A stretch of DNA of 64,000 nucleotides from Ptychomitrium polyphyllum (GCA_973851085.1 OZ316775.1:1-64000); one strand, 5' to 3'; shown: positions 1 to 22,849, counted from the stretch's first letter. Notes: generated by a model from the letters alone, not told the origin. Translations and numbers: made by a program.

Positions 1-2
1 CC

Positions 3-1163
3 TTGTTGTGCTCCAATTACGTGTGCGCGGCAGTGATGCACGTGCTGGGCGGACCGATGCAAGAGAGGGAGGGAACGGGAGCAGCAGGAGCTCCTCGGCC
101 ATGTGAGAGGGGTGAGGCACCCGCGGAGGTGAGGCCGAGTGCGGGGAATGCGAGCATGGGCGAGTGCAGTAGCAGGGGGCCGCGGAGATCGCCGATCAAG
201 GAATTGGCGGGGCCGGGGCCGGCAGGACGTGCCGCGGGTGCGGAGCAGGACGTACCAGGTGCGGGAGGATTACGCCAGTTGGCAGGCCGGACGGGACTTG
301 TGCAGCACGGGACGGGGCTGAAGGCGGTGCTTTTGGCACAGATTCACCAACTGCAGACTACTGCGAGCAGGCTGGAGGACGAGAGCAGCTTGAGGAAGGA
401 ATTGGAGAAGGGGAAGGAACTGCTGGAGGAGAAGAATGGCAGACTGGCGGAAGTGAATGGTCAGCTGAGGGACGCCGCAGAGTTGAACGCGAGATTGGAG
501 CGGCAGTACCTCGCGTTTGAGGATTCGTGGAGCAGGGAGAAGCAGCTGCTGCTGGACACGATACGCATCGAGAAGCAAGAGCGTGCGGAGCTTCTCGGGA
601 AGTGGGAGGGAGAGCGCAGGAAAGTTGCGGAATTGGAAAGGGACCGGAAGCGGGTGGGAGAGCAGCTGGCGAAGCAGAAGGAGGCATCGCACGCCGAGAT
701 TGCGGAGCTCAGGGTGACGGTGGCCAATTTGCAGAAGGATCTGGGTGGGAAGGAGCGGGACGGTCCTCCAGTTCAATCCGCCGAGGGCGTAGAAGGACTG
801 AAGCAGCGGATTGAGCAGCAGCAGACGCGATTGGATGCGCAGAACACCCGGCTCCTACAACTGGAGTCGCAGATGAGGGAGTTGGGCACCTACAACGAAG
901 AACTGACGGCCCAATTGAGGAAGGGGAGGGAAGGATCGGAGACGACGGAGACTGATTCATCTGCGGAGGCCGATGGGGAGGAAGTTGAGCAGGAGGGGGA
1001 GGGAGTTCCGCAGGGGCGCGGGGAGGTTCAGCAGGAGCGGGGGGAAGTTCAGCGGGAGCGGGGGGAAGTTCGGCAGGAGCGCGAGGAGGTTCAGCAGGAG
1101 CGCGAGGAGGTTCAGCGGGAGCGGGAGCAGGTATCCGGCAAGGGGAAAGAAGTTGCGGGGTGA
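3..1163 (+). CDS. Intronless coiled-coil protein (~375-386 aa; true start uncertain, first in-frame ATG at 36), candidate structural ORF of the telomere-associated element
   Basis: Long open frame. The central ~200 aa are E/K/R/Q/L-rich heptads (LEDESSLRKELEKGKELLEEKNGRLAEVNGQL...LKQRIEQQQTRLDAQNTRLLQLESQMRELGTYNEELTAQL), followed by C-terminal EVQQERE repeats. Confidence 0.6.
   Translation: MLCSNYVCAAVMHVLGGPMQEREGTGAAGAPRPCERGEAPAEVRPSAGNASMGECSSRGPRRSPIKELAGPGPAGRAAGAEQDVPGAGGLRQLAGRTGLVQHGTGLKAVLLAQIHQLQTTASRLEDESSLRKELEKGKELLEEKNGRLAEVNGQLRDAAELNARLERQYLAFEDSWSREKQLLLDTIRIEKQERAELLGKWEGERRKVAELERDRKRVGEQLAKQKEASHAEIAELRVTVANLQKDLGGKERDGPPVQSAEGVEGLKQRIEQQQTRLDAQNTRLLQLESQMRELGTYNEELTAQLRKGREGSETTETDSSAEADGEEVEQEGEGVPQGRGEVQQERGEVQRERGEVRQEREEVQQEREEVQREREQVSGKGKEVAG
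979..1131 (+). repeat. 21-bp coding tandem repeat (~7 units, GAGGAGGTTCAGCAGGAGCGC-like) encoding EVQQER(G/E)
   Basis: Visible 21-nt periodicity inside ORF 3..1163. Confidence 0.85.
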
Positions 1164-1347
1164 TGGGAGTAGTTTTGAGAGCTCGGGTTCTGGTGAAGAT
1201 TGTGTTTGCGAGGGCGCTGCAGAGGGAGGAGCGACCAGGCTGCGTAGAATGCCGAATATTGCATATGCTGAACATGACAATGATAGGATGTTAGACGGAA
1301 TTGGTGAGCCGGTAGGACGGCAGTTTAGGAAGTTTGTATGATATCTG

Positions 1348-1594
1348 CTCTCGTGTTTTGAAATTCCCAACTCCGACTTCTGATGACTCCCGTGTTTTGA
1401 AATTCCTTTTTAAACTCCGACTTCTGATGTCTCCCGTGTTTTGAAATTCCTTTGTAAACTCCGACTTCTGATGTCTCCCGTGTTTTGAAACTCCCAACTC
1501 CGGCTTCTGATGTCTCCCGTGTTTTGAAACTCCCGACTCCGACTTCTGATGTCTCCCGTGTTTTGAAATTCCCGACTCCGGCCTCTGATGTCTC
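1348..1594. repeat. Minisatellite, 6 units of 39-44 bp (CTCCCGTGTTTTGAAA(T/C)TCC..ACTCCGACTTCTGATGT)
   Basis: Units start at about 1348, 1387, 1431, 1475, 1514 and 1553. Confidence 0.92.
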
Positions 1595-2463
1595 ATTGCC
1601 TAGGCGACCGGGTTTTAGGGTGTGTGCCAGTGTCGGCGCATGAATCCTAGATGCGGGTGTCGTCTGCGGCGTTCCAATCCGGGTTTGACACATGGCGGTA
1701 TCTTCAGTCCTGTGCTCAGTTCTCCGCGCCTCCAGTGCCATGTCATCCGGCCTGGCTTTCCCCTCTACCCGACATGTCCGTCACGTCCGTCAGCATGCGC
1801 CTACGTGCATGCGCCCGGAATTTCGGAATTTCGTGCCTGTTGTGGGCGAATTTCGGCACCCAGTTAAACCTGGTCACTCGACAGTTCTTACACTCGACAG
1901 TTCTGATGTTTTCGTGGTCGCTCAGACCCGGTCCCCGAAATGGACCATCAACTTGCATTCTTCATGCTCTTTCGGAAAAGGCCTCGCGCGTCTTCATCCG
2001 ATACCGCATGAGGCCGTCACGAGAGGATGAAGTATGACGGGCCTTAACTTCATCCGTCCACAACTCGGGCATGTTGAGCCCGGTGAACGAAAGCCATACC
2101 ATTCCGAACTCCCGTTCGGAGCTCCTACACCGTGGGAGAACCCGGTCACACAAGTGACTCCCCCCCCCCCCCACTGCATGGCCGCATGTGCCGTCACACA
2201 TGTTGACTTTCTCACTGCGTTGTCGTATGACCCCAAACCACCCTGGAGCACAATGTGGGCGCCTTGGCACACGGCGTTCCGAATCCCAGTGCCCAGTGAT
2301 GATGAAATGAATCTCGTTTCCCCTTGTTTTCCTCACTGACAGTGATGAACTCTATTACTACAACCCCTGGTCCACTTGAACACTGATTTCTTATGTTGCA
2401 ACAAGTACGACGATGGAAGGTAATGTCAGCACTCTAAGCACAGTCAGAGAGATAACTCCTCCT

Positions 2464-2790
2464 GAAAACATGCACTAGTATTATCCACCGAGCAGTTCGG
2501 CTTACAATATTGCATTTATTGATACGATAGCCTAGTGCTTGGTGATTTATCTTGATACTGGTCTTGTTTCCGAATATATGATGAAGGGGTTTCCCCGAGG
2601 CAAAAATAATTGCCGATTCTTCTCTCTACATAACTGTGTCACTCCCTTCGGTTGATGTCAATTGCCGACTTGCATAATACATCAGTCGATCATGACCTTC
2701 ATCATCGATTGTGACAGTATCGTACTTACACCTTCTCCGGAAGCATGAGTATACACAATAAAGATAACAGTATACATTGGAACGTAATGT
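2464..2790 (-). pseudogene. Degenerate Ty3/gypsy LTR-retrotransposon pol fragment (RNase H domain)
   Basis: Manual minus-strand translation gives FIVYTHASGEGVSTILSQ / frameshift / DDEGHDRLMYYASRQLTSTEGSDTVM*REESAIIFASGKPLHHIFGNKTSIKINHQALGYRINKCNIVSRTARWIILVHVF. This matches the gypsy RNase H pattern (TDAS..GAVLSQ..YYASRQL..E..A..FA..F.HY..G..TDHQAL..GR.ARW). A possible integrase remnant lies at ~1800-2340 but is weak. Confidence 0.8.
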
Positions 2791-2799
2791 CGACAGTAG

Positions 2800-3100
2800 C
2801 CAGTGAGGCCGACGGATTATGTGAGTCTAATTCAACAACATTCTGATGTCGTCACAGTTGGGTGCAAAGAAGCCGAACCACCCTAAAACCTGGTCGACGG
2901 TACAGACATCAGATCATCACCCGAAGGAAAATTTAGAAGCGAATCCAAAATCTCATGTATACTTCATGAACGTATTTCACATACAAAATGGCCAGTATCG
3001 GGCCCCGAACCCCTACCCCGGCACTGTACTGGATGGCTGGCCAGTCCGGGCGACCCGATTCGAACCCAGTACCGAAACTTCGAACCCAATACCCTGAACC
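2800..3100. repeat. Dispersed ~300-bp module, diverged paralog of 5745-6090
   Basis: Shared blocks CGGATTATGT, AACCACCC, CATCACC.GAAG.AAAATT, AAGCGAATCCAAAATCT, CATGAACGTA.TT, ACAAAATGG and CCAGTATCGGG occur in the same order in both copies. Confidence 0.8.
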
Positions 3101-3536
3101 CGATACCATGAACCCGATACCCCGAACCCGGCTCCCGTACCGCGGTACTGGATGACTGGTCCGTCTAGGCGACCCAATTCGAACGCTGGACCGAAATACC
3201 GGACCCTAAACCCGGAGCCGTAGACCCTGAACCCGTGAACCGTAGCCCGGTACCGGGTGGCTGTTCCGTCCTGGCTACCCAATTCGGACCCCGTACCGGG
3301 ACATGGGTTCCGCGGCGACCGATTCCGGCTGCACCGATACCGATCCCGTCCGACTTTCGAGACCGGTCGTGTTCCGCGTGGGAGTGCCCGAACCTGGTCG
3401 CTCGGGCCCCATACAGAGACGGCGAGTAATGGACGCCGTCTTCCTTATTCCAAAATGGGGCCGGTGGCCACATACGAGTCTCCGACGGGGAGCACGACAG
3501 CGGGTGTGAACCCTCCGGCGACACACTCTCTACAAT

Positions 3537-4718
3537 CTAAGCCTCCTTCTTAATGTACTTCTTCTTGACGCCTATGAGAGCCATGTACTTATCCTTGATA
3601 TCCACATTGGTGCGGCCGGGTAGTTCGTCTTGAAACCTGGTCAAGATCTGCTTCCATTTTCCAATACCGTATTTTCTGACGCCGGCCCTCAGTACCTCTA
3701 CCTCCCGGTCCGTCCACTTCCTTCTCTGCCTTCCCTGTGTCGAACCGGATGCTGGGGGCGCCACGAAATGGTCGGCGGATTCATCGCTGGTGGGTTCGAG
3801 GCTTCGCTCGGCCGCTTTGGGCTGCAGGTCGTCCTCCTCGAGAAGTCGCTTCCCGTTCTGCTGGTGTGCCTCCCGGCTCGGCCCATCTTCAGGCAGGCAC
3901 ACGGGGGGGCCGAACACGGCACGGTGTGGGCCCACTAACGGAGGGGGAGATCCTGGATCCGACAGTTCCTGGTCGGTGGAGGTCTGCCTCGAGCCGACTG
4001 CGAACCCCGCAGCCCCTAGAGCTCGGATATCTTGCTGATGCTGGTCGGCTTGCTCCGCGATGAGCTGCTCCAGTTGGGAGCATCTTCTGTTGAAATGGTT
4101 CTCCAGGTCATTCAACCTGGTAGCTTCGCAGATGCCGCTGGCTCCTGCAAGGGGAGGCCCATCTCCTGGAGCTGCTCCTGGCGGCTGGACTTCCGGGGGG
4201 CGCCTCCCAACAACGGCGGTTTGTATGGGTGCGTCGAGCGCCAAGGATCCGAACGAAGCCCAAGCTCTCTGTGCCAGTATGGAGAGCTTGTCCCGGATGG
4301 CCTCGTATTGTCTGGGATTGTCCTGTGCGCCTGGAATCCACCCTCTGAGCTCGTTTTTCAGCTCCCGGATGGGATCGAGGAAGTCCTCCGGTTGTAGGGC
4401 ATGTCTCAGGCGCCCCCCGACCACCGTATCCTTCAGCTTCACCTCATCCTTGCCGACGAGCATCGTATATGTGAGGGTTCGCAGGAGTCGCTTGACTTGC
4501 TTGATGCTGTGCCTTTCGAGCGGAGGAGTCGACAGTAGACCGGTGACATCTCTGATTATGGACATCTGAGTCAGTCGGGGAACTCCTTCTGGAAAGGGCA
4601 CTTCCTTCCGGAACTCCTCCAGCACTAGAACTCCATCCGTGCACTTTAACATGAATTCCCAAACCCACAACTCTCGCGACCAGAGCCAGGAATCCTGCCT
4701 GCACTCGATGGGCGCCAT
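3537..4718 (-). CDS. Intronless protein with a C-terminal single Myb/SANT telobox domain (TRF-like telomere-repeat-binding type) and a central coiled coil
   Basis: The C-terminus RRKWTDREVEVLRAGVRKYGIGKWKQILTRFQDELPGRTNVDIKDKYMAL matches the TRF/TRB Myb consensus (W...E...L..GV.KYG.G.W..IL.....GRT.VDLKDKW). First ATG at 4718. Confidence 0.8.
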   Translation of the reverse strand: MAPIECRQDSWLWSRELWVWEFMLKCTDGVLVLEEFRKEVPFPEGVPRLTQMSIIRDVTGLLSTPPLERHSIKQVKRLLRTLTYTMLVGKDEVKLKDTVVGGRLRHALQPEDFLDPIRELKNELRGWIPGAQDNPRQYEAIRDKLSILAQRAWASFGSLALDAPIQTAVVGRRPPEVQPPGAAPGDGPPLAGASGICEATRLNDLENHFNRRCSQLEQLIAEQADQHQQDIRALGAAGFAVGSRQTSTDQELSDPGSPPPLVGPHRAVFGPPVCLPEDGPSREAHQQNGKRLLEEDDLQPKAAERSLEPTSDESADHFVAPPASGSTQGRQRRKWTDREVEVLRAGVRKYGIGKWKQILTRFQDELPGRTNVDIKDKYMALIGVKKKYIKKEA

Positions 4719-5400
4719 CCGCAATTGCGACCTCCTTGCAGCGGATCCCGGAGATCAGGGAATGCTTGCAAAGTCACGGGTCAAGAGATCGGCGTGGTTC
4801 ACACCAAGATCTGCCGGACCGGATCAAAATAAAATCAAAACAGGCCGCAGTAATGGGGGGGGGGGGGGGTTTATTTCGGAATGAGCAGATACCTTACAGG
4901 AGGAATGGGTACGACCGAGAAGATGCCGTCCGTGGGAGGTGAACAGGGAATATACTGAATACATAGAGGACATCGATTGGGAACACACTCAAAACTTGCA
5001 GTCACGATCGGAACCGCGAAATCCCCTGGACCTGCGGAAACTCGCACAAGTCGGAGACCTCTAGGATCGGGTCTGGACACTACGATCGGACCACGGAAAT
5101 CCCCATGAATGCGAAAGCCACGAGAACTTCCATCAAAACCATGGGTCGTGCGGATGGAGGGGTACATTACCATCAACTATGTGCCCGGACGGCAGTGGCA
5201 GAGGACCCACCAGCACGTGCCGCACCAAAAATGAATTGAAAACATATCCACAATATAAACTGAGCACATGGTACATAATAGCGCCTACAAGTGTGGTGAC
5301 TCTATTCAGGGAGGAGCGTAGGAAAGTAAAAGGAAAATCACTCTGCGATATGAACGGTAAGAGAAGAAAAAGCCGTCCAAACTGCCGCTGCACCGGCTGT

Positions 5401-5550
5401 GAACTGAGGCTCTGCCTAGAAACTACCGGTGAACTGAAGCTGTGCCTAAAATTTGCAGGTGAAGTGAAGCTGTGCCTAAAAATTGCAGGTGAAGTGAAGC
5501 TGTGCCTAAAAATTGCAGGTGAAGTGAAGCTGTGCCTACAAATTGAAGGT
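5401..5550. repeat. 30-bp tandem repeat, 5 units (GAA(C/G)TGAAGCTGTGCCTAAAAATTGCAGGT)
   Basis: Directly visible. Related units occur at ~6595-6660, 9190-9245 and 9830-9890. Confidence 0.9.
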
Positions 5551-5744
5551 GAATTGGTCACTCTGCCCAATCCTGCGGCGGACTATGCCGTCAACCCACG
5601 AGCCCACGTTCAGGTATTCCGATGTTTTTGTATAGCCTCGGAGTTTTTGGCGTTATGAATCGAAACAGTGAATGGTTGAGTATAAGTTTCTCGTCACTGC
5701 ACGGAAGGCCTCATAGCTGTGGCGTTCATATAATCCACAGAACA

Positions 5745-6140
5745 TGAGACCGGCGGATTATGTAGGTCTGACTCAACTGCATTCTTCAATCGCCACAACC
5801 GGATGAGAAGGAGCCAAACCACCCTCAACCTCCGACAGTGTGAACATCGGACCATCACCTGAAGAAAAATTCGAAAGCGAATCCAAAATCTGATATATAT
5901 TCCATGAACGTACTTGATACACAAAATGGGACGGGAAGGTGGACATTCAAACACACATTTGACATATAAGTGCGAGGATACGACGACCGGCTCAAGGAGG
6001 GCGCCGACCAGTATCGGGTCCTCAACCCCTAAACCCCGGTACTATACTGGATGGCCGGTCCGTCCTGGCGACCCATTCCGAAACCCTAAACCCTAGAAAC
6101 CCAGTACCCTAAACCCGAAGCCCAGTACCCTAAACCCCTG
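5745..6140. repeat. Second copy of the ~300-bp module, ending in degenerate telomeric repeats (AAACCCTAAACCCTAG..CCCTAAACCC..CCCTAAACCCC)
   Basis: Similarity to 2800-3100; CCCTAAA motifs at ~6027 and 6081-6138. Confidence 0.75.
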
Positions 6141-6947
6141 ATTCCCTGAGCCCGAAGACGGATGGAAAACTAGAAATCAAAACAGGGTTACCTACGTTCC
6201 ATTCCAACTTCCTCCCAATCCTCAGAGTCCTCCCAGTATCTTGCGATTTCGGAGTTGCGGGTCAGGGCGAGCATGACCGAGTACCGGCTCCGGAACCCGT
6301 ACCCCAGTACTGGATAGCCGGTCCGTCCAAGCGACCCAATTCGGACCCGGTACCGAGATACCGGTTCCACCGGGGCCAATCCCGGATGCACCTCCGAAGC
6401 TTATTGGGGACATCAATGCACTGCATGAAAGACCTCGATACATATCATCGTTCGACGGTCAGCAGCTGTCTCCTCTATGGCCTCCTTGGGCTGACTGGGG
6501 AATGACATTCGACCCTTTTGGAAGAGAGCCGAGTTCATCTGGTGAATCATTGTTGGGAACAGAGGGCCGTCGACACTGCCGCTGCACCGGCTGTGAACTG
6601 AAGCTCTGCCTAGAACTGCCGGTGAACTGAAGCTGTGCGTAAAAGACGCAGGTGAACTTGTCGCTCTGCCTGAACCTGCGGCGGACTGTAATGCCAGCCG
6701 ACGAGCGCTGGGTTCTTTTTGGAGCAACCGGCATCTCCGGGTCCCGCACCCCCCTACGCTGGGTTAGCTACTGGACGAGACGTCGGCATCTTGCAACGAC
6801 GGAACTTTGGAGATCCGCATGTTGAGGGACCACGCGGACGGTGGTCGGAGGTGGACACCGGCGACAGACGCCGAGTATCCCGGGGCAATTTGGACATCAG
6901 TATCCGATGCACGTGATCACTGCACGACCAGATGCGGCCCGGTTTCG

Positions 6948-8501
6948 CTACGTCTCGAATGAGTCCACTGGACAACGGAATGTTTCATTGTCCGACCCTA
7001 AACCCTCTGGCTTGGCCTTCACATGTCTCCTCCAATTCCTGCCGTATTTGTTGATGAAGTGGCGGGCGCCGGTGACCCGATCCACGTACACCCCTTCCAT
7101 TTTCCAGTACCCGCCTCCTCTCACCTTCTGCAGCATGGTGGGATGGGGGTCCCTCTCCCTCGCCCGACTGTGATTCTGCCAGGACGCGTTGTCCAGGAAG
7201 TCCTGGATCACGGGCCGGTTGTGCGCATCATCCAGCTCCCAACCGTCGTAGTGGAACAACGGACGCTCTTTCCGTACCTGCTGATCCACCACAGCCCCCC
7301 CCCAATTCCGAGCGTCCTTGAGGTGACGCCGCATGTGTTTGCCGCTCCATCCGACTGCCTGGCGAGCCCTCGTGAGGGCGGACCGCATCGCGATGCTCGG
7401 CGTGCAATCGTTCCCGCCCAGTACCAGGCCTTGCAGTATCCGGACCTTCGATCTGAGGTTGTGCAGGACTTCGTGGGCGGAAATGCTTTGGGTGCGGAAC
7501 GGCCCCCCCAGCAATCTCTCGATGCCCTGCAATTGCAGCAGCCCCAGGTCCGAACACATACGGTGGGCCTCCGCGACTGTGTGGGCACGTGCGATGGACA
7601 CTTCGATCCTGGTGCCCAGCAGGCGTTCCCTCAACGTCGCACCGTCGTACCCTTCCCATGCTCGTAATAGTTTCTCCATCTGCTCCGCCCGGATGCGCAT
7701 GGTGCGGATCGTCTTGGGCATGTCGTCCAGGCTGTGCCTCGGTATGGCGGACAGGACATCATGGCACGGCTCGTGGTAGATTTTGACCTTCCCGATCCCT
7801 TCGTGGCCCGATAGGTAGAACTCCAGGGAGCCGTGGTTGGGAATGTCGAACATCTCGTGTATTTTGCCCTGCCTGAATCTTCGAACGGGACCGAACTGAC
7901 CCTCGCCGAAGCAGAGGACATCTATCGTCGCTGCAGGCAGCAGCGTCCCGATGTCGAATTGGTTCCTCCTCCCCACAGCTACTCTCCCGCGGAGGGCCGT
8001 GTGGTACTGCACGAAGCGGTCGATTCTAGGCTGGGCTTTCTGGTAGGCCCACTTCATGCCATAGAACCCCACCCGGCGTTCCACATGGCCGCACGCCCGG
8101 AGCGCTTCCACCATCGCTCGGAGGGGGACGTTCACCTGGCTCCTGGCGAGGACCATGTCGTGGTTGCTGAGAGTCAGCGCCAGCCCATGGCCCCTTCGCA
8201 ACTCCTGGCAGATGGAACGCTTCTGGTCCTCCCTCTCCGCATCCGAGAGCCCTGCATCCACCTTCACGACGATCGGGTCGGATATGACGTGCAACCACTC
8301 CCTGTAGAATTCGGAATCCTTCACGCGGATTCTGCGGTTGGCTGGACGCACGATCTCTCCGACCAGGCCGTGTAGATCACGGAGATCCATCATGAAGCAC
8401 GCGGAGTCGATATCTGTATGGAGTGGGTCGGCGGTGGTGGATCCGGTCCCCAACCCGGGCTGACGCCCGGGACGCCCGCTGACATTCGCAACAGCGTCCA
8501 T
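6948..8501 (-). CDS. 517-aa intronless protein of unknown function (copy 1)
   Basis: Long ATG-initiated ORF with globular, enzyme-like composition, intact in both copies. Confidence 0.75.
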   Translation of the reverse strand: MDAVANVSGRPGRQPGLGTGSTTADPLHTDIDSACFMMDLRDLHGLVGEIVRPANRRIRVKDSEFYREWLHVISDPIVVKVDAGLSDAEREDQKRSICQELRRGHGLALTLSNHDMVLARSQVNVPLRAMVEALRACGHVERRVGFYGMKWAYQKAQPRIDRFVQYHTALRGRVAVGRRNQFDIGTLLPAATIDVLCFGEGQFGPVRRFRQGKIHEMFDIPNHGSLEFYLSGHEGIGKVKIYHEPCHDVLSAIPRHSLDDMPKTIRTMRIRAEQMEKLLRAWEGYDGATLRERLLGTRIEVSIARAHTVAEAHRMCSDLGLLQLQGIERLLGGPFRTQSISAHEVLHNLRSKVRILQGLVLGGNDCTPSIAMRSALTRARQAVGWSGKHMRRHLKDARNWGGAVVDQQVRKERPLFHYDGWELDDAHNRPVIQDFLDNASWQNHSRARERDPHPTMLQKVRGGGYWKMEGVYVDRVTGARHFINKYGRNWRRHVKAKPEGLGSDNETFRCPVDSFET

Positions 8502-11174
8502 CCTGGAATCCTGATCTCCGAACGCCGAAGAACGTGGGTCACGATCCGCACGGAATCAGGAGGTCCCCATCGCAGGTCCCACACCTCCTCCGATAATGTG
8601 GCGTATACTGTCGGCATGCATTCGAAATACGTCGAAGCGCTCCACGTCCTTATTCTTTTGTTTGTCGGAACATATGCGGATGACCTACATATGAGGATGG
8701 TACGACCCACGAGGTACCGTCCTTCGCAGATGATATATTGAACGTGCACAGAACGTGAACCAGAACTACGCAGGGAACGTGCGGGGTCACGGTGAGAACG
8801 CGAAAATCCCCCACACCTGGAGCGCTTGCACGACCCCGGTCCCCCTAAATCGGAGCATGGAAATCACAGTCAGAACCGTAAAGCCGTCACACTTCGACCG
8901 ACACCAACGGAGTGATACCAACGGAGCGATGCGATACCATCAGATGTGCACCGAGATTGCCGTAACGGAGGGATCCAGCATCACAGAATTGGGAGAAAAT
9001 GAACCGAAAATATATATATGCAAAATAAATTGAAAATACATCGCAGATATGAGCCGCCCAGGACAATATACAAGTGCCTTACACGGTGGTGCCTACCCTT
9101 ACAGAAGAGCGTAGGGGAGCAGAAGCACAGTCACTTGCGATGCGAAAAGCGGGAGAAAGATGCCATGGAACTGCCACTGCACCGACGGTCAACGGAAGCT
9201 CCGCCCGAGGCTGCCGGTGAACTGGAGCTCGGCCTGGAACTGCGGTGGACTTGCGCCGCGGATGGGATGCCACAGCCCTGCCGGATCGGTCACCGGGCCG
9301 GCGGATGTCCCCATCCGAGAGCTCGCCATGATTACGCTCCAACATGCGGAGATCCTAACTGGCGTGGAGAGCCTCTAATCCACGGTGCAATGCCCCGTTG
9401 CACTTTGATGACCGGGATCGGAGAAGAGACGGGTACGAGGCCGCAGGAATCCCAATTCATTGGGTTTAGGCGGTCCCACCCGTTCTTACGGGGAATCAGC
9501 CCGGTCCAATTCCGGTATTGGACGAACCGGTAGGTGCGAGACGGTCACGGCCAGTACGGGGCGAGCCCGGACCAATTTCGGCCCCACCAGTACTCCCGGT
9601 ATCGGAAGCCGGTCCGTCCTTGCAGACCCAATTCCGACCCTACCCCTTCCGACCGTACCAGGTTCAGGGTCCTCCCGATTTTTACAGCAGAGCGTAGGAG
9701 AGTGAAAGGGCGACCACCGGCAGTATGAAAGGTGCGAGGAAGGGCGCTCGCAATGCGAAGAGAAAGAGGAAAACCACTCGTAGTGGCAAGCGTAAGAGGG
9801 GAAAAGCCCTTGAACTGCCACTACACCGCCGGTGAACTGGAGCTCCGCCTAAAAGTGCCCGTGGACTGGAGCTCGGCCGAAAACTGTGGTGCAGTTGCGT
9901 CACGGAGTGGGTGTGACAGCCCCTCCCAGCGTGCGGTGTTGGGAGCGCCGCACGCCCTCCGCACTTGCCCCCTCGCCTCCTTCGCCTGCCTATCCGCTTC
10001 GCCTGCCTGCCCGCTTGCGTGAACCTCTGTGTCCGGCCCTGCCTGGTTGGGGCGCTCGACTTCGACGCAACCGGTGGTGGTACTACCTTACTCCTGCTTC
10101 GTTTCTGCACCGCCGGGGCTGTGTGTGCACAAGGCCAGGGGTATCACGTTTCTGCGGGTTGCGCTCTCGAGATTCCAGTCCGCTGTCCAGCAGCGGCACC
10201 GGGTTTACGGTCTGGCGATGTCCCGTCCTCCGTCCCCTCTACGGTTTCTTGCCCACCCCCCCTCGCCCCTCATCTCTTGGCAGCATGAGGACATGCTTCC
10301 GAATCCTGGTCTGCGTCGTCTCGAAGGGAAGAAGGTACGTGACACCCGACACCAATGTTGGGGTTAGTATGGTTGTATACGGAGTCGTTTCTCCAGTTCT
10401 CATGGTCGCTCATTCGACAGGACGCTCATTGGTTTTGTAATTCTGTTGTAACTAGGTTCTCGTTGATCCAATTCCAGAAGTGCGGACAGTTGCGTCACTC
10501 GCTCGGGGACCAGGTTATTGGACGATTTTTTATTTTGAACTCATTCTCTCCCGGTTCCTGTGTCTCCGACCTGCTCGGTGGCGTGCACGAAGTACTGAGG
10601 ACGGATACAACTGTGAGTCTGCTCCGCTAAAATATTCCGTAATTGACGCAGTCGATGACGGGATTACGCGAAGAGCGTGAGCTGGAACCTTTTCGCGACG
10701 AAGACGGGCCGGCTTTCACGGGAAAAAATGCCCAGGTTCACCATCTCACCGCTCTTTTCCCATTGGGATCGTTTAAATTCTAGATTTGTTCTTCCAACTC
10801 AATTCTTGCTAAATTGGTTGCCCATGCGCACTATGATGGAACCTGGGATGAGGGCTGTAGATACTACTGGCCAACCTGGATATTGCTCGCATTCTGTCCC
10901 CGTTTCACAAGAAACTATGGCTTCTTCGCTGGTGTCCGTGAACCCTTTATTTCTGTCGTCTTGGACCTGGTCTTCACGCCACTGGAGGACGGCCGGTTCC
11001 GTTCTGGTCCACATTTCTCCCCTACTTGAATACTCGCCGGGCCCAATGCTTAATGTGGACAATGGGGCCGTTCTATGATACTGGCCCCTGGTCCCAGACA
11101 GTGCAGTAAGCCGGTGGCATTCGGGTGGAGCAGTGCTGTGCTCTATGCAGGGGTGACTGAGACATAGCCGCAGT

Positions 11175-11827: not shown

Positions 11828-12018
11828 CGCTGGGTTAGCTACTGGACGAGACGTCGGCATCTTGCAACGACGGAACTTTGGAGATCCGCATGTTGAGGGA
11901 CCACGCGGACGGTGGTCGGAGGTGGACACCGGCGACAGACGCCGAGTATCCCGGGGCAATTTGGACATCAGTATCCGATGCACGTGATCACTGCACGACC
12001 AGATGCGGCCCGGTTTCG

Positions 12019-13572: not shown

Positions 13573-16245
13573 CCTGGAATCCTGATCTCCGAACGCCGAA
13601 GAACGTGGGTCACGATCCGCACGGAATCAGGAGGTCCCCATCGCAGGTCCCACACCTCCTCCGATAATGTGGCGTATACTGTCGGCATGCATTCGAAATA
13701 CGTCGAAGCGCTCCACGTCCTTATTCTTTTGTTTGTCGGAACATATGCGGATGACCTACATATGAGGATGGTACGACCCACGAGGTACCGTCCTTCGCAG
13801 ATGATATATTGAACGTGCACAGAACGTGAACCAGAACTACGCAGGGAACGTGCGGGGTCACGGTGAGAACGCGAAAATCCCCCACACCTGGAGCGCTTGC
13901 ACGACCCCGGTCCCCCTAAATCGGAGCATGGAAATCACAGTCAGAACCGTAAAGCCGTCACACTTCGACCGACACCAACGGAGTGATACCAACGGAGCGA
14001 TGCGATACCATCAGATGTGCACGGAGATTGCCGTAACGGAGGGATCCAGCATCACAGAATTGGGAGAAAATGAACCGAAAATATATATATGCAAAATAAA
14101 TTGAAAATACATCGCAGATATGAGCCGCCCAGGACAATGTACAAGTGCCTTACACGGTGGTGCCTACCCTTACAGAAGAGCGTAGGGGAGCAGAAGCACA
14201 GTCACTTGCGATGCGAAAAGCGGGAGAAAGATGCCATGGAACTGCCACTGCACCGACGGTCAACGGAAGCTCCGCCCGAGGCTGCCGGTGAACTGGAGCT
14301 CGGCCTGGAACTGCGGTGGACTTGCGCCGCGGATGGGATGCCACAGCCCTGCCGGATCGGTCACCGGGCCGGCGGATGTCCCCATCCGAGAGCTCGCCAT
14401 GATTACGCTCCAACATGCGGAGATCCTAACTGGCGTGGAGAGCCTCTAATCCACGGTGCAATGCCCCGTTGCACTTTGATGACCGGGATCGGAGAAGAGA
14501 CGGGTACGAGGCCGCAGGAATCCCAATTCATTGGGTTTAGGCGGTCCCACCCGTTCTTACGGGGAATCAGCCCGGTCCAATTCCGGTATTGGACGAACCG
14601 GTAGGTGCGAGACGGTCACGGCCAGTACGGGGCGAGCCCGGACCAATTTCGGCCCCACCAGTACTCCCGGTATCGGAAGCCGGTCCGTCCTTGCAGACCC
14701 AATTCCGACCCTACCCCTTCCGACCGTACCAGGTTCAGGGTCCTCCCGATTTTTACAGCAGAGCGTAGGAGAGTGAAAGGGCGACCACCGGCAGTATGAA
14801 AGGTGCGAGGAAGGGCGCTCGCAATGCGAAGAGAAAGAGGAAAACCACTCGTAGTGGCAAGCGTAAGAGGGGAAAAGCCCTTGAACTGCCACTACACCGC
14901 CGGTGAACTGGAGCTCCGCCTAAAAGTGCCCGTGGACTGGAGCTCGGCCGAAAACTGTGGTGCAGTTGCGTCACGGAGTGGGTGTGACAGCCCCTCCCAG
15001 CGTGCGGTGTTGGGAGCGCCGCACGCCCTCCGCACTTGCCCCCTCGCCTCCTTCGCCTGCCTATCCGCTTCGCCTGCCTGCCCGCTTGCGTGAACCTCTG
15101 TGTCCGGCCCTGCCTGGTTGGGGCGCTCGACTTCGACGCAACCGGTGGTGGTACTACCTTACTCCTGCTTCGTTTCTGCACCGCCGGGGCTGTGTGTGCA
15201 CAAGGCCAGGGGTATCACGTTTCTGCGGGTTGCGCTCTCGAGATTCCAGTCCGCTGTCCAGCAGCGGCACCGGGTTTACGGTCTGGCGATGTCCCGTCCT
15301 CCGTCCCCTCTACGGTTTCTTGCCCACCCCCCCTCGCCCCTCATCTCTTGGCAGCATGAGGACATGCTTCCGAATCCTGGTCTGCGTCGTCTCGAAGGGA
15401 AGAAGGTACGTGACACCCGACACCAATGTTGGGGTTAGTATGGTTGTATACGGAGTCGTTTCTCCAGTTCTCATGGTCGCTCATTCGACAGGACGCTCAT
15501 TGGTTTTGTAATTCTGTTGTAACTAGGTTCTCGTTGATCCAATTCCAGAAGTGCGGACAGTTGCGTCACTCGCTCGGGGACCAGGTTATTGGACGATTTT
15601 TTATTTTGAACTCATTCTCTCCCGGTTCCTGTGTCTCCGCCCTGCTCGGTGGCGTGCACGAAGTACTGAGGACGGATACAACTGTGAGTCTGCTCCGCTA
15701 AAATATTCCGTAATTGACGCAGTCGATGACGGGATTACGCGAAGAGCGTGAGCTGGAACCTTTTCGCGACGAAGACGGGCCGGCTTTCACGGGAAAAAAT
15801 GCCCAGGTTCACCATCTCACCGCTCTTTTCCCATTGGGATCGTTTAAATTCTAGATTTGTTCTTCCAACTCAATTCTTGCTAAATTGGTTGCCCATGCGC
15901 ACTATGATGGAACCTGGGATGAGGGCTGTAGATACTACTGGCCAACCTGGATATTGCTCGCATTCTGTCCCCGTTTCACAAGAAACTATGGCTTCTTCGC
16001 TGGTGTCCGTGAACCCTTTATTTCTGTCGTCTTGGACCTGGTCTTCACGCCACTGGAGGACGGCCGGTTCCGTTCTGGTCCACATTTCTCCCCTACTTGA
16101 ATACTCGCCGGGCCCAATGCTTAATGTGGACAATGGGGCCGTTCTATGATACTGGCCCCTGGTCCCAGACAGTGCAGTAAGCCGGTGGCATTCGGGTGGA
16201 GCAGTGCTGTGCTCTATGCAGGGGTGACTGAGACATAGCCGCAGT

Positions 16246-16591
16246 GGTCTTGTGAAACTGATTTTGCTCTCCTCAGTTGGGTTCAATTTGTGGACGGTCT
16301 TGTGAAACTGATTTTGCTCTCCTCAGTTGGGTTCAATTTGTGGACGGTCTTGTGAAACTGATTTTGCTCTCCTCAGTTGGGTTCAATTTGTGGACGGTCT
16401 TGTGAAACTGATTTTGCTCTCCTCAGTTGGGTTCAATTTGTGGACGGTCTTGTGAAACTGATTTTGCTCTCCTCAGTTGGGTTCAATTTGTGGACGGTCT
16501 TGTGAAACTGATTTTGCTCTCCTCAGTTGGGTTCAATTTGTAGACGGTCTTGTCAATCTGATCTTGCTTTACACAGTTGAGTTGCACTTTC
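16246..16591. repeat. 50-bp minisatellite, second array
   Basis: Duplicate of 11175-11520. Confidence 0.95.
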
Positions 16592-16814
16592 GAACCTTGT
16601 GCTTGGAATGTGTGTGAACCCGGGCTGATTTAGGGTCAGAACGAGGGTAATTCCTCGCCCGAAACCCTAAACCCTAATTCTTGCAGAACCTGAAATTTTC
16701 AAAAAAGCTTGGGGTTTTTGGAATCCTTGTGGCATTGCGAATCCCGTGGTGTGCAGATGTCGCGCAGAACCTTAGAATCCAGCCATACCTAAAACCTCTA
16801 GGACGCTCTTGTAA

Positions 16815-16876
16815 CCCTAAACCCTAAACCCTAAACCCTAAAACCTGGTGACCCTAAACCCTAAACCCTAAAACCT
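16815..16876. repeat. Interstitial telomeric tract, interrupted: (CCCTAAA)4-ACCTGGTGA-(CCCTAAA)3-ACCT
   Basis: Directly visible. Confidence 0.95.
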
Positions 16877-19800
16877 GTGGAGAGCAATTGTGGCATCATG
16901 AAGTCACTACTTGCGTTTTGCAATCAAAATCAATCTCTCTTGGATACTTATAAGGTATTTCCCTTTCACAAGCACGTGATGAATTGGAATCTTGTTTCCA
17001 GGTTTAGGATTGTAGTGAGATCTGCAGTTATGTAGGGGGCGTGTTTGTTTCTATATCTTTATTTCCATACGTTTTGTCTGCATCTGAAGTAGTACGCCGG
17101 ATGTAGAGTGATCTCATAGAAGAACAATGTGGTTTTCTTTCATCTTGATGGGATGTAACCTCGAAAGATTGAACATTAATGTCTAGAGATGATAGTGATC
17201 GACCTGCTTCATGTAGACCTTGCTTAGAATTGTTCACAGTTGGACGATTCTCTTGTTATCTTTCACCCTTTACTTCGCTTTATTGTTTCCTGTTTATTCA
17301 TTGAACTCCTTCTAGAAGCTCTTCACGCTTTGTACGCAAAGAGAGTAGTCAAACTGTTATGAAAATGAATTCTTCTGCGAGTTTTTTGGGACTAGCTACT
17401 AGAGAATATTGTATTCTGAGCTGGCGGTATGTTTTGAGGCTGTAGGAGAGGCATTACTGACTTGTTGAATTCTATTTCCACTTGCAGGCCTGGTTTTTGC
17501 AATCGTCTTTGAAGCTGGTCTTTGATTCGACGAACAGGAAGCCGCTTAGGGCTCTGAGTGAAGGCTTGCAGCCACTACTTGAGCAATTGTCACATGGAGA
17601 TTTTGGGGAGATAATTCTGCCCGGCGGAATCAAAATGTTGAAACGGAATCCAGAGCTGGTGATGGAAGCGTTTGGTCTATTATCGACATACTCCGAATTG
17701 GATCTCAGTCAATACACTGCAGAAATTCCGCTATCAATATTAATTTGGGCTCGACATAACAATGAGACTCGACGCAGAGAATCCCTACAACTAGTAACTC
17801 GACTGGTGGTCCATTCCAACGACTTAGACGCCATTTCAGCCATGTTTCCATCTGTTAAATCTTTACTAGCAGGTAAAGCTTTGATCTTACTTGCACCTTG
17901 TATATAATTCATAAACACGATTCTCTCTAGTTTGAAAGCAGCCCTGATAGCAGTCAGTCACTCCTACTTACCTGCAGAGTTTCTATGGGTATGTAAGTGA
18001 TTGCGAGGAGTATTGTTTTGATGTATACTCACACGCAGTATCTGCAGCTGCTGGTCCGTCTTTTGTGGCATCCAGCATTGGGTGCACGGAGGGCCGCTGA
18101 AGCTGTTGTGCTTCGTGCCGGAAAAGCAGATGATTTTCTATTAGAAGCACTCTTTGATTCCTTGAGTGTTGAAGTGAGCACGTTTGGTGATCAACATCTT
18201 CTCCACACGAACAGGTAAGAGTAAAAGCTATTCTAGCAGTTTGATTTCAGTTTGGAAAGCTTATGAGAACCTAGGATCTACGTCCTGTTCTTTCATTCCT
18301 TTTTGTCGTTTATCGATGCTCACTCCCTCAGCTAATAATGTGGACCCTGTACATGGCGTCATCGTTGTTTTTCTAATTGCATTTCTTGTGGTAGGGACAT
18401 GGCAGTGATGCTGGAGTGTCCTTGGGAGGGGTAACAGTGAACGGTGTTCCTAATGCCAAGCTGCTGTCCAAAACCTGGTTGCTCGCCTCATCCGCGTCAC
18501 TGGCCAGAAAACCTTCACATTGTGCTCGACTGCTGCTCTCGGCACCCAACCCTTGTATTGCACCAGGTCACCATGGAGATGTCATTTGGAAAGTAAGTTT
18601 GGTCGTCACAATTTTGGTTGTCCTTTTTGAGGACATCTTCCCCTTTTTTATATCCTCCTTTTCGTTGATGACATGATTTCTATTAAGCACAATGGCCGAG
18701 TACCTCACAATATTTCTGCTTCAAGTGTTCTGTATTCTTGTTGTTATGTTGATTTACTTGTTGGGTTTTTTGTTCCTGTTCTGTTAGGTGTACAAACCCT
18801 TGGTTCAGGTTGGAATCGTTCAGTTTTTCGTCGTATGTCCTTTTAAATATATAACTGTGGAAGGTTTTACTTGATTCTCTGTCGTGTTGTTACTAGACCC
18901 TTCCATAATCTGGAGTTAGATCAAGTATTCTTATTTCAGCCGGGCTATGTTTTTTTTGTATCTGACTCATGTTATGGATGCAGACTCTTTGTAGAAAGAT
19001 GAAAAGACTTGGCTTGGATATGTCCAGCATTTTGACCTTCGATCCTGTTGCTGTTTGTGAGGTGAGTCGAGTAGAATCAAAATTCTTCCTTTTCATCAGT
19101 GAAAGAGTTCCATGCTGAGAATGTCGTCCACTTTTTGGTTGATGATTTCTGCGATTGGACTTGACCAGGTTTTAGATACCTATGAATGATTGCAGGTACT
19201 TCTTGGATCACCAGGGCTGGTCAGCACAAATTTGTCAGAAGAGCGAGCTGCTATATTTTCTCTTGAAACCGCCATGAGGGTGCTTCCAGATGGTTTTTCC
19301 CCGACTTTTATCCAGGTACAGTTGTGCAACCTTTGTCCTCGTGGTCGTCGGTTGCAAGTATCTCTCTGTAACTGGCCTGTCGGACACGGAGTTTATGCTC
19401 TTGACGAAAGATTGAGTCTACGCCCATGTGTATAGATGTCGGAATGGCATTCAATCCGAGCAGATTTGAACAATTTTTGGTTGTTTGTTGTTATTGCTTC
19501 AGCACGTGGTCCTTGATCGCGCTGTGTCGCGCACTGCTGATTTTTTTGATGCGTACAATGCTTTTGCACAGAATGGATATTCTAGGGGATCGTCATCTCC
19601 ACGATTCTTCATCTTCACAAGATATCGTGGTTTTTTCTTGCCTCACACGCTTAGGTTGGACACCTTGGAGAACAGTTTCGATTTGGATTGTGTTCGATAT
19701 GAATTCATTTATCTGACAGTCCTTTATGAATTCATCTATCTGACAGTCCTTTTTTGCTTGGAAACATACTTCACAGCTTTGTGTTTATTCATGAAAATTT

Positions 19801-20330
19801 GAAGCATGCATCTTCGCTGATGTCCACTCTGGCAGCATGTAGGAGGGATTTTATTTGATCAATTTGTTCTTGCCGTGCAGGTGAATCTGATAAGTCGGGG
19901 TCCGTGAAGGAGGAAGCACGAGAACTCAGACTTCAGGAGGAGTATTCTGTTCGTAAAAAAGCCGAGGCAATACAGATGAGACTTTCTTCAGTGTTGAGAG
20001 CTCCGGGTTCGGTTGCTGTTGCAAATCCTGCGGGGGCACATGAACGATTCCCTGCCTTGGTGAGTTTCTTGGTTATACTTTTGTATTTCTGTGATCCTTT
20101 TTGGATTTTTTGGGATAAAGCACCTGCCCTGTGACTGCACATTCTCTATGGCACACGTTGCATGTGTTAGGGTGGTTATGGGCGATTAGCAGTTTATGGG
20201 TCCTGCAGAATTCAAGTTATCTTGATAGCTTTTTGATCCGACAATTAGCATCTTCTCTAGGTTCTTGATCGCCACATAAAGGCGATGCTGCTATTTTTTC
20301 TCCGCGAGGGTTAGGTGTCGCAAGCTACGA
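16877..20330 (+). pseudogene. GCN1: Partial, intron-containing GCN1/ILITYHIA gene copy (internal exons only)
   Basis: Exon peptides LQPLLEQLSHGDFGEIILPGGIKMLKRNPELVME..LDLSQY..ARH, LLVRLLWHP, LLGSPGLVSTNLSEERAAIFSL and KEEARELRLQEEYSVRKK..LSSVLRAPGSVAVAN match plant GCN1 in colinear order. The copy begins mid-exon at the telomeric tract, has an in-frame TGA near 20266, appears to lack intervening exons and has no C-terminal part. Confidence 0.8.
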
Positions 20331-20450
20331 AAGAAAGAGAAGCAATGTATCCTCTTTCATCTGTAATGTTGAGTGTCGATTCTTCTCATTTGCAGTGGCA
20401 TGTATTTTCTTTAAATGTTGATAGCCTTAACTTCCATGTTTTTCGAACAG

Positions 20451-21845
20451 CTTTCGGAATCATATAAGCCTGCAAAGAGAGCATGGCGGTGTGCAAAAAT
20501 TTGCTCAATTGATCAGCTGGGCTGCTTTTACAACTCCAGATGTAACTGCAAAGAAGAAGCTATCAACTCAGTTCAACATTGGCAAGTCAGTAAGGCTGAA
20601 TCTTTCTCCTCAGGCTCGGTTGAGAGAGCAGTTACCTGCGTCCATTTCTGCGCAGCCAAATGTATCACCAAGCAGCCAGCAATCCTTCCAAGCTACTACA
20701 TCTCGTGACCAGGACTCTATTATATCTGGAGGTGTTCAAAGTTCTGAAGATGTTCATGAGTTTGTCTATGAAGGAATCAATTTACGAAGCTGGAATTGGA
20801 GAGTGGCTGATTTGTGTCGGATCCTGTGTTCTGTCTTGGTCCCTGTCGGCAATGCCATGAGCTTTGCAGCGGGTATTCAAGGAGGACTGGATGGGGCCGC
20901 TAATTCGAGTGTTTATTGGGAGCAAGCCACTCGTTTTATCATTGATGTGTTGATTAATGTCTTCCAAGCACGTGATGAGAACTCGGGTGAAGTCAACAGT
21001 GCATTCAGGTCTGATGCTTTCATCTTATATTGATCTTCTTTGATTCTATTTTGGATATTTTAAGCTTCTCATTTTGTAAGTATTCACATGGTAGTTGTAC
21101 TTCTGGTTGTATTAGAAAAAATCTACTTTGTTGGCTCGGAAAGTGCTTACTGTTACACTCGCGTTTATTTTTAGTATTTGTCCTAGTTCGTATATATTTG
21201 TGCTGTATGATTTGCAGCGAACTTATAGGCACAACAGCTGAAATCTAACCATTATGATGTTGCAACTTTCGTTTGGCAATGTTCACAGATTACAATCGAC
21301 CACACTTCAGCATTGTGTTCTCCATGTATTCAAGAAGATGTTGGAGGGTACACCAACAGTCGTGAATTTGTTTCCCAAGGACGGAGTATGGGAATTAGTG
21401 TTCTCCGAGTGGTTCTTCTACTTTGCATTTGGAGATTTAAATAGATATCCTGAAAGAGGAAAAAATAGCGATTTAAATTCAGGAGTTACGTTCAAATCTA
21501 ATTGGAAGATTCAAAAGACCCTAAGTTCTGATGTGAACATTAGTGCACACAGAGTCCAAATCCTCAAGAATTTTCGCTCTCAATCATTGTGTCTTCAGAC
21601 ACTGAGCCCTTATGCCTGGAAATGATATCATTTTTGGATTTGGCTGCAACCACATCTGGCATTTCAGATAATTTGGTAATTATTGACTCCTTAGTGATGA
21701 ATACTTCAACGACTAAGGTCCAAGAGATTTGCATGAAGTGGTGCTTCTTCAACGTTCGAACAGGTACAGCAAATCCCATTCATATTTCATTTTGACATGG
21801 AATCATACAATCTTCCAATCATCTTTTTCTTTTAGCCTGTTGGAT
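20451..21845 (+). pseudogene. Partial, intron-containing BEACH domain-containing protein B (BchB-like) gene fragment
   Basis: Peptides EHGGVQKFAQ, WNWRVADLCRILCSVL, TLQHCVLHVFKKML..GVWELVFSEWFFYF and LEMISFLDLAATTSG resemble the N-terminal region of plant BchB. There is a frame change inside the exon at ~21560-21590, and the fragment is truncated at both ends. Confidence 0.7.
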
Positions 21846-22205
21846 TGAGAAGGTTTTGTGAAATTGATTTGTCATTATTCACTTGAATTGAAATTTTGAA
21901 CTTGGTGTTTGGAATGTGTGTGAACATGGACTGATTTGGGGTCAGAATGAGAGTACTTCCTCGCCGGACACCCCAAACCCTAATTTTTGCAGAACTTGAA
22001 ATTTTCAAAAAAGCTTTGGGTTTTAGGAATCCTTGTGACATTACAATTCAGGTGGTGTGCAGATGTCGCGTAGAACCTTAGAATCCAGCCATACCTAAAA
22101 CCTCTAGGACGCTCTTGTAACCCTAAACCCTAAACCCTAAAACTTGGACGCTCTTGTAACCCTAAACCCTAAACCTAAACCCTAAACCCTAAAACCCTAA
22201 AAACC
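21845..22205 (+). mobile_element. Short left-truncated copies of the element terminus (~275 bp and ~14 bp), each followed by CCCTAAA repeats
   Basis: Homologous to 11470-11750. GGACGCTCTTGTAA-CCCTAAA occurs at 22107-22127 and 22146-22166. Confidence 0.85.
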
Positions 22206-22845
22206 TGGTCATCTTGGACCTGGTCTTTATGCCAGTGGAGGACGCCCGGTTCTTTTCCGGTCCACATTTCTCCCCTACTTGAATATTCGCCAGGCCCAAT
22301 GCTGTATGTGAAGAATGGAGCTCTTCTATAATACTGGCCCCTAGTCCCAGACAGTGCAGTAAGCCGATGGCATTCGAGTGGAACAGTGCTGTGTTCTATA
22401 TAGGGGTGACTGAGACATAGCCGTAGTGGTCTTGTGAAACTAATTTTGCTCTCCTCCGTTGAGTTGAAATTGTAGACGGTCTTGTGAAATTGAATTTGCT
22501 TTACACAGTTGAGTTGCAATTTTGAACCTTATGCTTGGAAAGTGAGTAAACCCGGGCTGATTTAGGGTCAGAACGAGGGTAATTCCTTGCCTGAAACCCT
22601 AAACCCTAATTTTTGCATAACTTGAAATTTTCAAAAAAGCTTGGGTTTTTGGAATCCTTGTGAAATTCCGGTTCTGGTGATGTACCTGGTCGTCTGGAAC
22701 ATTGAAATCCAGGCATACCTAAAACCTCTAGGACAGACTTGTAACTTTAAATCCTAAATCCAACCATACCTAAAACCTTCAAGACACTCTTGTAACCCTA
22801 AATTCTAAATCCTAAACCCTAACAATATTTTTAGATCCTAAACCC
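22206..22845 (+). mobile_element. Older, diverged left-truncated copies of the element terminus (~540 bp and ~40 bp) with decayed telomeric repeats
   Basis: Aligns to 10957-11750 with many substitutions and only 2 units of the 50-bp repeat. Termini at ~22744 and ~22795 are followed by CTTTAAA/TCCTAAA/CCCTAAA. Confidence 0.85.
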
Positions 22846-22849
22846 GGTC

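Follow-up and report, generated by a model that had tools for sequence, protein, structure and literature searches.

The first 22.8 kb of a 64,000-nucleotide stretch of the moss Ptychomitrium polyphyllum (GCA_973851085.1 OZ316775.1:1-64000, hereafter the window) carry a polar array of copies of one multi-copy element, each joined at the same fixed end to telomeric CCCTAAA repeats, with left ends that vary. The element encodes a 517-amino-acid (aa) Rep-like protein that belongs to a gene family with conserved residues, and the same fixed end stands beside a distant clade of that family in other genomes. We propose, with a probability of roughly 0.55, that this element spreads as DNA, its predicted nickase cutting the junction and joining the G-rich strand of the element to telomeric 3' ends.

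The fixed end is the most exact feature of the array (Table 1). TGTAA ends at positions 11743, 16814, 22120, 22159, 22744 and 22795, with CCCTAAA repeats next and all six junctions on the + strand, so both the single nucleotide and the single orientation claimed by a first-pass annotation of this sequence are confirmed. The 16-mer spanning the junction, CTCTTGTAACCCTAAA, has 5 exact matches in 64 kb compared with 0.69 expected when 3 mismatches are allowed, and its largest count in 100 shuffles is 3; the junction at 22744 is decayed (GACTTGTAA followed by CTTTAAATCCTAAA). The left ends do vary as annotated, lying at 11828 (position 6757 of copy 1), ~21845, ~22146, 22208 (position 10955 of copy 1) and ~22757. 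The two that can be aligned within copy 1 both fall on telomere-like seeds of the element itself, CCCCCTAC at 6749-6756 and AACCCTTTA near 10945, and the element body holds 9 CCCTAAA seeds where 0.6 are expected. Copies 1 and 2 are 99.9% identical, with 6 differences in 4987 bases, while the right-hand relics are 84.4%, 84.8% and 87.5% identical to copy 1 (the last over 40 bp only). The relics are therefore older as a group, in line with the annotation, but their divergence does not rise steadily along the array. No element match was found right of 22850 in the rest of the window. Since the C-rich telomeric strand is the + strand, the chromosome end would lie to the left, and contigs of run X4 continue copy 1 by at least 253 bases beyond base 1.

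The annotation described 1-22845 as an array of the element, which holds for the polar copies but not for 16880-21840, where it missed a piece of the host gene GCN1 (PF24993). This piece has GT-AG introns, lacks both gene ends and is not part of the element; outside the Pfam-matched exon its extent was drawn by eye, from what we take to be resemblance to GCN1. Telomeric repeats cap it on the left, and on the right it joins relic copy 3 without telomeric repeats. It is a captured host gene piece, and its retained introns speak for spread as DNA.

The 517-aa protein had been annotated as unknown, and it still matches nothing by sequence in Pfam, PHROG or the PDB, but it can now be given a family and a predicted fold. 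A profile search returned 351 representatives at E <= 0.001. Named members are few and come from mosses and, distantly, from a chytrid and a rust fungus; the nearest are from Physcomitrium (60%) and Ceratodon (50%), where the family is multi-copy with 5 and 7 ids, respectively. None of the window's three proteins has an entry in the protein collection searched. AlphaFold2 models of the protein are confident, with a pLDDT of 91.2 at full length and 94.7 for residues 22-340. Compared with 48,161 chains, this core model has only two matches with Z >= 5, namely 4CIJ (Z 7.5, root-mean-square deviation 4.0, 186 residues aligned) and 4CWC (Z 5.0), with TBP next; the TBP fold is shared by Rep_trans. 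Foldseek with the full model places 4CWE (probability 0.93, E 5.6e-3) and 4CWC (probability 0.87, E 1.2e-2) on top, both of them staphylococcal Rep_trans structures. The viral structure matches include a protein named inovirus Rep and A0A345MNV4, the latter an inovirus Rep_trans (PMC13107129; this and the papers below are cited from the parts of their text that were available). HUH proteins are absent among the matches listed, the best of which have the unrelated TBP-like fold.

The candidate active site agrees with this fold in order and in kind. Counting the alignment rows that cover each column, the conserved residues are D32 (46/49), D183 (50/59), K240 (62/67), Y242 (66/67), R298 (53/59) and E300 (57/60), and D32, D183, Y242 and E300 all lie in predicted strands, Y242 in the strand 236-243. 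The order D, D, Y, E is that of the RepDE active-site residues D46, D142, Y191 and E214 (PMC13107129, PMC5714925). Rep_trans enzymes are described by the motifs RxD (I), YxKxxE (III) and W/LxRxE (IV) (PMC5714925); the moss protein has K-x-Y (K240/Y242) and R-x-E (R298/E300) motifs, the latter within a G-x-R-x-E counterpart of motif IV. We thus predict that the protein is a candidate Rep_trans-fold tyrosine nickase, which points to a DNA mechanism. As the fold match comes without Pfam or profile support, the model makes it a distant structural relative of Rep_trans and not a member of PF02486. Distant full-length relatives (P0156, P0157 and P0166) carry the same candidate catalytic residues; their sources are the chytrid Fimicolochytrium (two adjacent gene ids), the rust fungus Puccinia and a metagenome protein. 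Two other identities were rejected. An RNA-dependent RNA polymerase was the top Atlas match by features (0.93, 168 shared), with low recognition (1730) and no support from fold searches, and the same Atlas list also held a Phage_CRI lead (14% of members); a viral origin was set aside, as no relative was found among 50 pattern matches in viral contigs.

The second gene of interest encodes a protein whose only Myb domain lies at the C terminus and is closest to telomere-repeat-binding factors (telobox, TRF/TRP-type). Telomere-repeat-binding proteins make up 21 of the 22 best PDB matches of this domain (best E 7.7e-8), which agrees with the annotated telobox Myb protein. The N-terminal part has no homologs, with Atlas leads all under 0.9, and a complex prediction of this part with Rep scored 0.00, a value that carries no weight either way. 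It seems likely from the domain assignment that the Myb protein aims the element at telomeric DNA. A telomere-type Myb protein together with a predicted Rep-like nickase fold argues that the element likely adds copies of itself to chromosome ends as DNA and not via RNA.

The family and its attachment to telomeric repeats extend beyond this locus, as the first-pass annotation had anticipated in describing a multi-copy, polar and left-truncated family. A scan of metagenome contigs gave 188 pattern matches in 32 loci, or 22 after merging near-identical ones. The terminus GGACACCCATGTAA followed by CCCTAAA, or a close variant of it, occurs in 13 of the 32 loci (8 of the 22 distinct ones), where a locus has at most eight pattern matches, all of them on one strand; the annotation had held that a terminus confined to one locus or randomly oriented would imply a local duplication only. 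The Rep proteins of these loci form a separate clade about 45% identical to the window protein. Between the window and metagenome termini, 9 of 12 bases before the repeat agree (p ~4e-4, for a 12-base span picked by eye), and the non-coding parts otherwise have only telomere-like motifs in common. Synonymous sites are saturated, and the approximately unbiased (AU) test, on 16 rows with three long-branch rows left out, rejects a single clade of the window, L001 and L003 (p 6e-52). Among L001, L002 and L003 dN/dS is 0.18-0.27, and the Rep gene is, on these sequences, under purifying selection. The only stop-free single-frame metagenome copies, L001 and L003, both adjoin long telomere arrays at the contig edge; their Rep cassettes (L001 637-2268, L003 687-2321) point the opposite way with respect to the terminus, unlike those of the window and 12 of the 13 junction-bearing loci. 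L004 contains a 3.35-kb unit bounded by two fixed ends, with Rep as its sole recognizable gene. In L002, a terminus copy of ~9 bases lies between two telomeric tracts (1773-1783).

A similar placement is seen in Ceratodon, where 5 of the 7 gene ids fall within the first 12 ordinals of their chromosome, on what we take to be the numbering convention of these ids. KC19_8G000100 and KC19_8G000200 are both Rep and are adjacent, as the first two gene models of chromosome 8. KC19_6G223100, KC19_6G225000 and KC19_VG001200 span just 56 protein accession numbers. With so short a span, the two chromosome-6 copies likely lie near the far end of that chromosome, if accessions follow chromosome order. Other repeats have been described at moss chromosome ends, (GGCCCA)n at 13 of 52 ends in Physcomitrium and (CCCAGGG)n at some ends in Funaria, according to the available text of both reports.

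The annotation had favored attachment of the HeT-A/TART or Penelope-like type, that is, through RNA and a reverse transcriptase (RT). This proposal found no support, although the accompanying remark that no RT is visible in the window was correct. Across 124 six-frame segments taken from 1-11830 and 16800-23000, Pfam showed neither an RT nor a helicase nor a transposase; the left end of the element lies beyond base 1, outside this coverage. Nor did any of these appear in the related loci, where the search covered 78 of the 112 segments listed for 17 of the 32 loci, most of the others overlapping Rep. The hammerhead core (CTGANGA..GAAA) has 3 loose matches in 22.8 kb, but the 5 kb upstream of each junction contain no such match, and five related loci have none either; Rfam gave no matches. 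There is no poly(A) end, every junction passing from TGTAA into CCCTAAA without an A-tail.

The mechanism that we propose builds on the chemistry of Rep_trans enzymes, which nick one strand, hold the 5' phosphate via a tyrosine and rejoin it to a free 3'-OH (PMC5714925). In the element, the G-rich strand has its 5' end at the fixed end, and telomeric G-rich 3' ends read like the donor side of the junction. Rep would nick the minus strand at 5'-GGGTT^ACAAG or slightly to its telomeric side, and Y242 would keep it covalently bound to the element strand at the 5' end. Starting from the 3'-OH so released, host replication would then peel the element strand off, directly or via a single-stranded circle, while the telobox Myb protein likely brings the complex to telomeric DNA. 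There, a telomeric 3'-OH in the same repeat phase, either a G-overhang or a Rep-made nick within it, would attack the phosphotyrosine and so join the element strand to the telomere, in the manner of IS91 with the telomere repeat as target. Transfer would stop, or the new end erode, at varying points, often at internal telomere-like seeds, and telomerase would cap the broken far end, on which the next attachment could build. Nicking, displacement and joining to a telomeric 3'-OH would in this way yield one polarity, one phase and a ragged, telomerase-capped far end.

Several observations weigh against this proposal. The fold match is moderate, with a Z of 7.5 below the tool's caution line of 8; Foldseek has no PDB match that reaches E 0.001 and ranks 4CIJ seventh with the core model (E 0.39), and three helical proteins outrank it with the full model. 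No Pfam match was found in 89 family members and none in PHROG, PDB sequence searches with alignments A1 and A3 gave no matches, and an hhalign profile comparison with 17 Rep_trans proteins returned a probability of 0.3%. The Arg of motif I is missing (N-x-F-D instead of RxD), as is the Lys of motif III (Y-[QHP]-[EK] instead of YxK), and the D-D-E triad is a candidate one, matched in order, kind and predicted strands. The Myb recognition helix is partly diverged (KDKYMA rather than KDRWRT), and the related metagenome loci showed no Myb gene. Of the 22 distinct metagenome loci, 14 are without a junction, several of them being short contigs, and the span behind the 9/12 terminus match was, as stated, chosen by eye. 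Decayed Rep copies also lie among host genes (GST, clathrin) in L009 (9782-11377) and L029-L032 (near 9740-11725), where up to 10 kb of flanking sequence shows neither a terminus nor a telomeric tract, and the family is therefore not strictly telomeric. No second (termination) end was seen in the window, the element's left part lying outside it. Finally, the same polarity is expected from reverse transcription and from recombination, and aborted template copying accounts for copies of 9-25 bases (22146-22159; L002) more readily than strand transfer does.

A Y'-like subtelomeric element could spread by recombination, a telomere end invading an internal (CCCTAAA)n beside a copy, or a telomere-containing circle, and copying the distal DNA, with the Rep-like protein making circles or single strands or being a passenger. 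Such a process would also give a single polarity, a junction inherited unchanged and left ends that vary; it accounts for the very short copies, for left ends at the two seeds in an element body enriched in CCCTAAA and for the intron-bearing GCN1 fragment, and the near identity of copies 1 and 2 suits it as well. We nevertheless consider it unlikely, as passive inheritance would not preserve one junction in two clades whose non-coding DNA is otherwise unalignable, nor keep the candidate catalytic tyrosine in 66 of 67 rows under purifying selection, and Pfam finds no helicase in the window.

An endonuclease-deficient Penelope retroelement of the Terminon/Athena/Coprina kind, to which the Rep, Myb and coiled-coil genes would be accessory, seems less probable still. 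Its + strand RNA, ending in CCCUAAA, would pair with the G-overhang, and its RT would lie left of base 1 or elsewhere; the element does extend left of the window, and very short 3'-end copies suit aborted reverse transcription. Such elements show the same polarity, telomere-capped 5' truncation, head-to-tail chains, captured host genes and coiled-coil and Rep ORFs (PMC6431247), and endonuclease-deficient Penelope-like elements are reported in Selaginella, with some moss BLAST hits (PMC8557442, PMC12477314). Against this stand the RT and hammerhead searches described above, the fact that the gene beside the terminus is Rep and not RT in both clades, and the two Rep genes that open Ceratodon chromosome 8. 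The joint retention of the junction and the candidate active site across clades is, in our judgment, somewhat better explained by strand transfer than by either recombination or reverse transcription. A local segmental duplication or assembly artifact beside an interstitial telomere tract would fit the almost identical copies 1 and 2, yet those copies have 6 differences and the relics are ~15% diverged. Contigs of four public runs, carrying three organism codes, span 27-30 of the 30 bins into which 1-11738 was divided, homologs occur in several copies in Physcomitrium and Ceratodon, and the junction recurs in other genomes; this explanation is largely refuted and has very little probability left.

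The Myb and Rep genes, both on the G-rich strand, have paralogous upstream and downstream modules (Table 1), and thus look like separately transcribed cassettes; 4719-5603 likely comprises a promoter, a TATA-like tract and the donor of an intron in the 5' untranslated region. A second intact Rep gene lies in copy 2 (13572-12019, - strand) and differs by one residue (G16R). The annotated coiled-coil protein is upheld by a heptad signal (10-31 of 1000 shuffles), and searches found no homologs of it. The inverted motif pair near the fixed end could be a hairpin or a protein-binding site, with a predicted hairpin stability not above that of shuffles (z -0.82); at the junction itself no stable hairpin beats shuffles on either strand, in the window or in L001. 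Depths of near-identical contigs in run X1, possibly the source sample, are not equal to copy number; they rise from 1579 (299-1440) through 1921 (5509-7040) to 3738 (9030-10629), with diverged variants at 50-80, and fit many copies in which right ends outnumber left ends; in run X2 the depth is almost flat (1107-1602) until the final kilobase (2125). Among the contigs are also two or more further versions of the downstream module, with a depth like that of the left part of the element, which suggests that two or more additional gene cassettes lie left of base 1.

Table 1. Features of the element and its array in positions 1-22845 of the window.
Feature	Position	Strand	Remarks
Copy 1	1..11743		runs past left window edge; fixed right end ...GGACGCTCTTGTAA
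Coiled-coil open reading frame (ORF)	3..1163	+	open at window edge; 375 aa from ATG 36
39-bp tandem repeat	1348..1594		after coiled-coil ORF
Myb gene downstream module	2804..3335	-	paralogous to 5745-6392; contains telomere-like motifs
393-aa protein	3537..4718	-	C-terminal telobox-type Myb domain (residues ~330-380)
Myb gene upstream module	4719..5603	-	paralogous to Rep upstream module
Rep gene downstream module	5745..6392	-	variant telomeric repeats at 6078-6137
517-aa Rep-like protein	6948..8501	-	predicted TBP-like Rep_trans fold
Rep gene upstream module	8502..9300	-	extra partial module at 9806-9922
50-bp tandem repeat, subterminal	11175..11512		6.8 copies
Inverted pair of telomere-like motifs	11548..11606		~140-190 bases from fixed end
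Conserved fixed-end junction	11730..11750	+	candidate nick/joining site on G-rich (-) strand
(CCCTAAA)12	11744..11827	+	separates copy 1 from copy 2
Copy 2	11828..16814		left-truncated at copy 1 equivalent 6757; second intact Rep gene
Telomeric tract with variants	16815..16873	+	caps GCN1-bearing unit
Host gene GCN1 fragment with introns	16880..21840	+	PF24993 match at 17461-17904, E 1.9e-23
Relic copy 3	21845..22120		last 275 bases, 84% to copy 1; fused directly to GCN1 fragment
Mini-copy 4	22146..22159		last ~14 bases, flanked by telomeric tracts
Relic copy 5	22208..22744		left end at copy 1 equivalent 10955; junction decayed
Mini-copy 6	22757..22795		decayed telomeric repeats after it to ~22845

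The ends of the telomeric tracts show a pattern of their own. CC(C)TG continues 8 of 25 tract ends in the window and ten loci, at 16843, 16873 and 22203 of the window, 110 and 3404 of L001, 3219 and 5241 of L007 and 4809 of L019; it occurs too at loose contig ends and within the element at 2881, and may be a signature of telomerase healing or an element-borne motif. To the right, a sharp A+T-rich block at 23000-25000 (GC 0.20-0.22) lies between the array and ordinary host genes. These include a CYP38-like cyclophilin (26300-27606), a phosphoinositide phospholipase C (44063-46860), a weak CASP-domain match (54228-55109) and a SAUR gene (59988-60494).

The element is real and likely new in kind, with a mechanism that is predicted. 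The literature consulted holds no description of it, of a eukaryotic Rep_trans or of a telomeric case, while Repbase and Dfam, which lie outside that scope, could name the family otherwise. In the available text, the string 'subtelomer' is absent from both the Physcomitrium telomere-to-telomere preprint and the Funaria paper, and 'Helitron' from the former. Telomere-associated elements are described as rare in plants (PMC12477314), the telomere-attaching elements of the reviews are retroelements, and the eukaryotic rolling-circle transposons in the literature (Helitrons, Replitrons) use HUH enzymes, as far as the accessible parts of these sources go. We give even odds to the broader view that this is a new class of eukaryotic DNA transposon, in which a Rep_trans-fold, non-HUH tyrosine nickase would use the telomere repeat as target half-site and ligate its own strand to chromosome 3' ends, with a telomere-binding protein of its own; such a class would occupy moss chromosome ends across deep clades, have distant fungal relatives and could lengthen ends without telomerase or RT. 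If true, eukaryotes would gain both a new transposase fold and a DNA-only way to add sequence at chromosome ends, and a nickase able to attach a DNA strand to a 3' end of choice could be useful as a tool. The proposal is directly testable, with a short candidate nick site, named catalytic residues and homologs in Physcomitrium, for which gene targeting and telomerase-RNA knockouts exist (PMC8287931). Under recombination or reverse transcription, too, moss chromosome ends would still carry a eukaryotic family of Rep_trans-like proteins that lacks annotation.

To place the element among known systems, we compare it with those that share its enzyme, its one fixed end or its telomeric arrays. With Rep_trans (PF02486: pT181/pC221 RepC/RepD, pSTK1 Rep 4CIJ, RepDE 4CWC/4CWE and inovirus Reps) the moss protein has in common the predicted TBP-like alpha/beta core, the Asp, Asp, Tyr and Glu in the same order and in strands, and the R-x-E and K-x-Y motifs. 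It differs in having no profile-level similarity, in lacking the RxD Arg and YxK Lys, in its long insertions and C-terminal extension, and in being nuclear, eukaryotic and carried on a telomeric element; Rep_trans is described as restricted to bacteria, with a sister family, Rep-Arvir, in archaea (PMC13107129, 2026). IS91/ISCR, Helitrons and Replitrons resemble the element in having one fixed end next to a short target, an unreliable or variable other end and captured neighboring DNA. One-ended transposition and capture are known for HUH rolling-circle transposons (10.1101/2025.01.24.634351, PMC6431247), and in IS91 the ori end is fixed next to a short target while the ter end is leaky (10.1101/2025.01.24.634351). 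Further marks of this group are a defined termination end and, in Helitrons, a helicase or, in Replitrons, direct terminal repeats; the natural left end of the moss element lies outside the window. However, their enzymes are HUH proteins, unrelated in fold to Rep_trans (PMC13107129), whereas that of the moss element is predicted to be Rep_trans-like; the string 'telomer' is absent from the Replitron paper.

Among systems at chromosome ends, Terminons, Athena and Coprina share the polarity, the telomere-capped distal truncation, the tandem chains, the captured host genes and the coiled-coil and accessory ORFs including Rep (PMC6431247). Their defining features are an RT and a hammerhead next to C-rich repeats (PMC6431247, PMC8557442), and the moss element differs in that neither an RT nor a terminal hammerhead was found in it. 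The last group to consider is formed by HeT-A/TART/TAHRE, yeast Y', MoTeR, SART and TRAS. Arrays in one orientation at or in telomeres are a feature of yeast Y', MoTeR, SART and TRAS, and HeT-A carries its poly(A) at the chromosome-proximal end. The moss element shares with this group the head-to-tail, one-orientation arrays at or in telomeres, but no poly(A) end, Gag, RT or helicase was seen in it, and telomerase-type repeats persist between its units.

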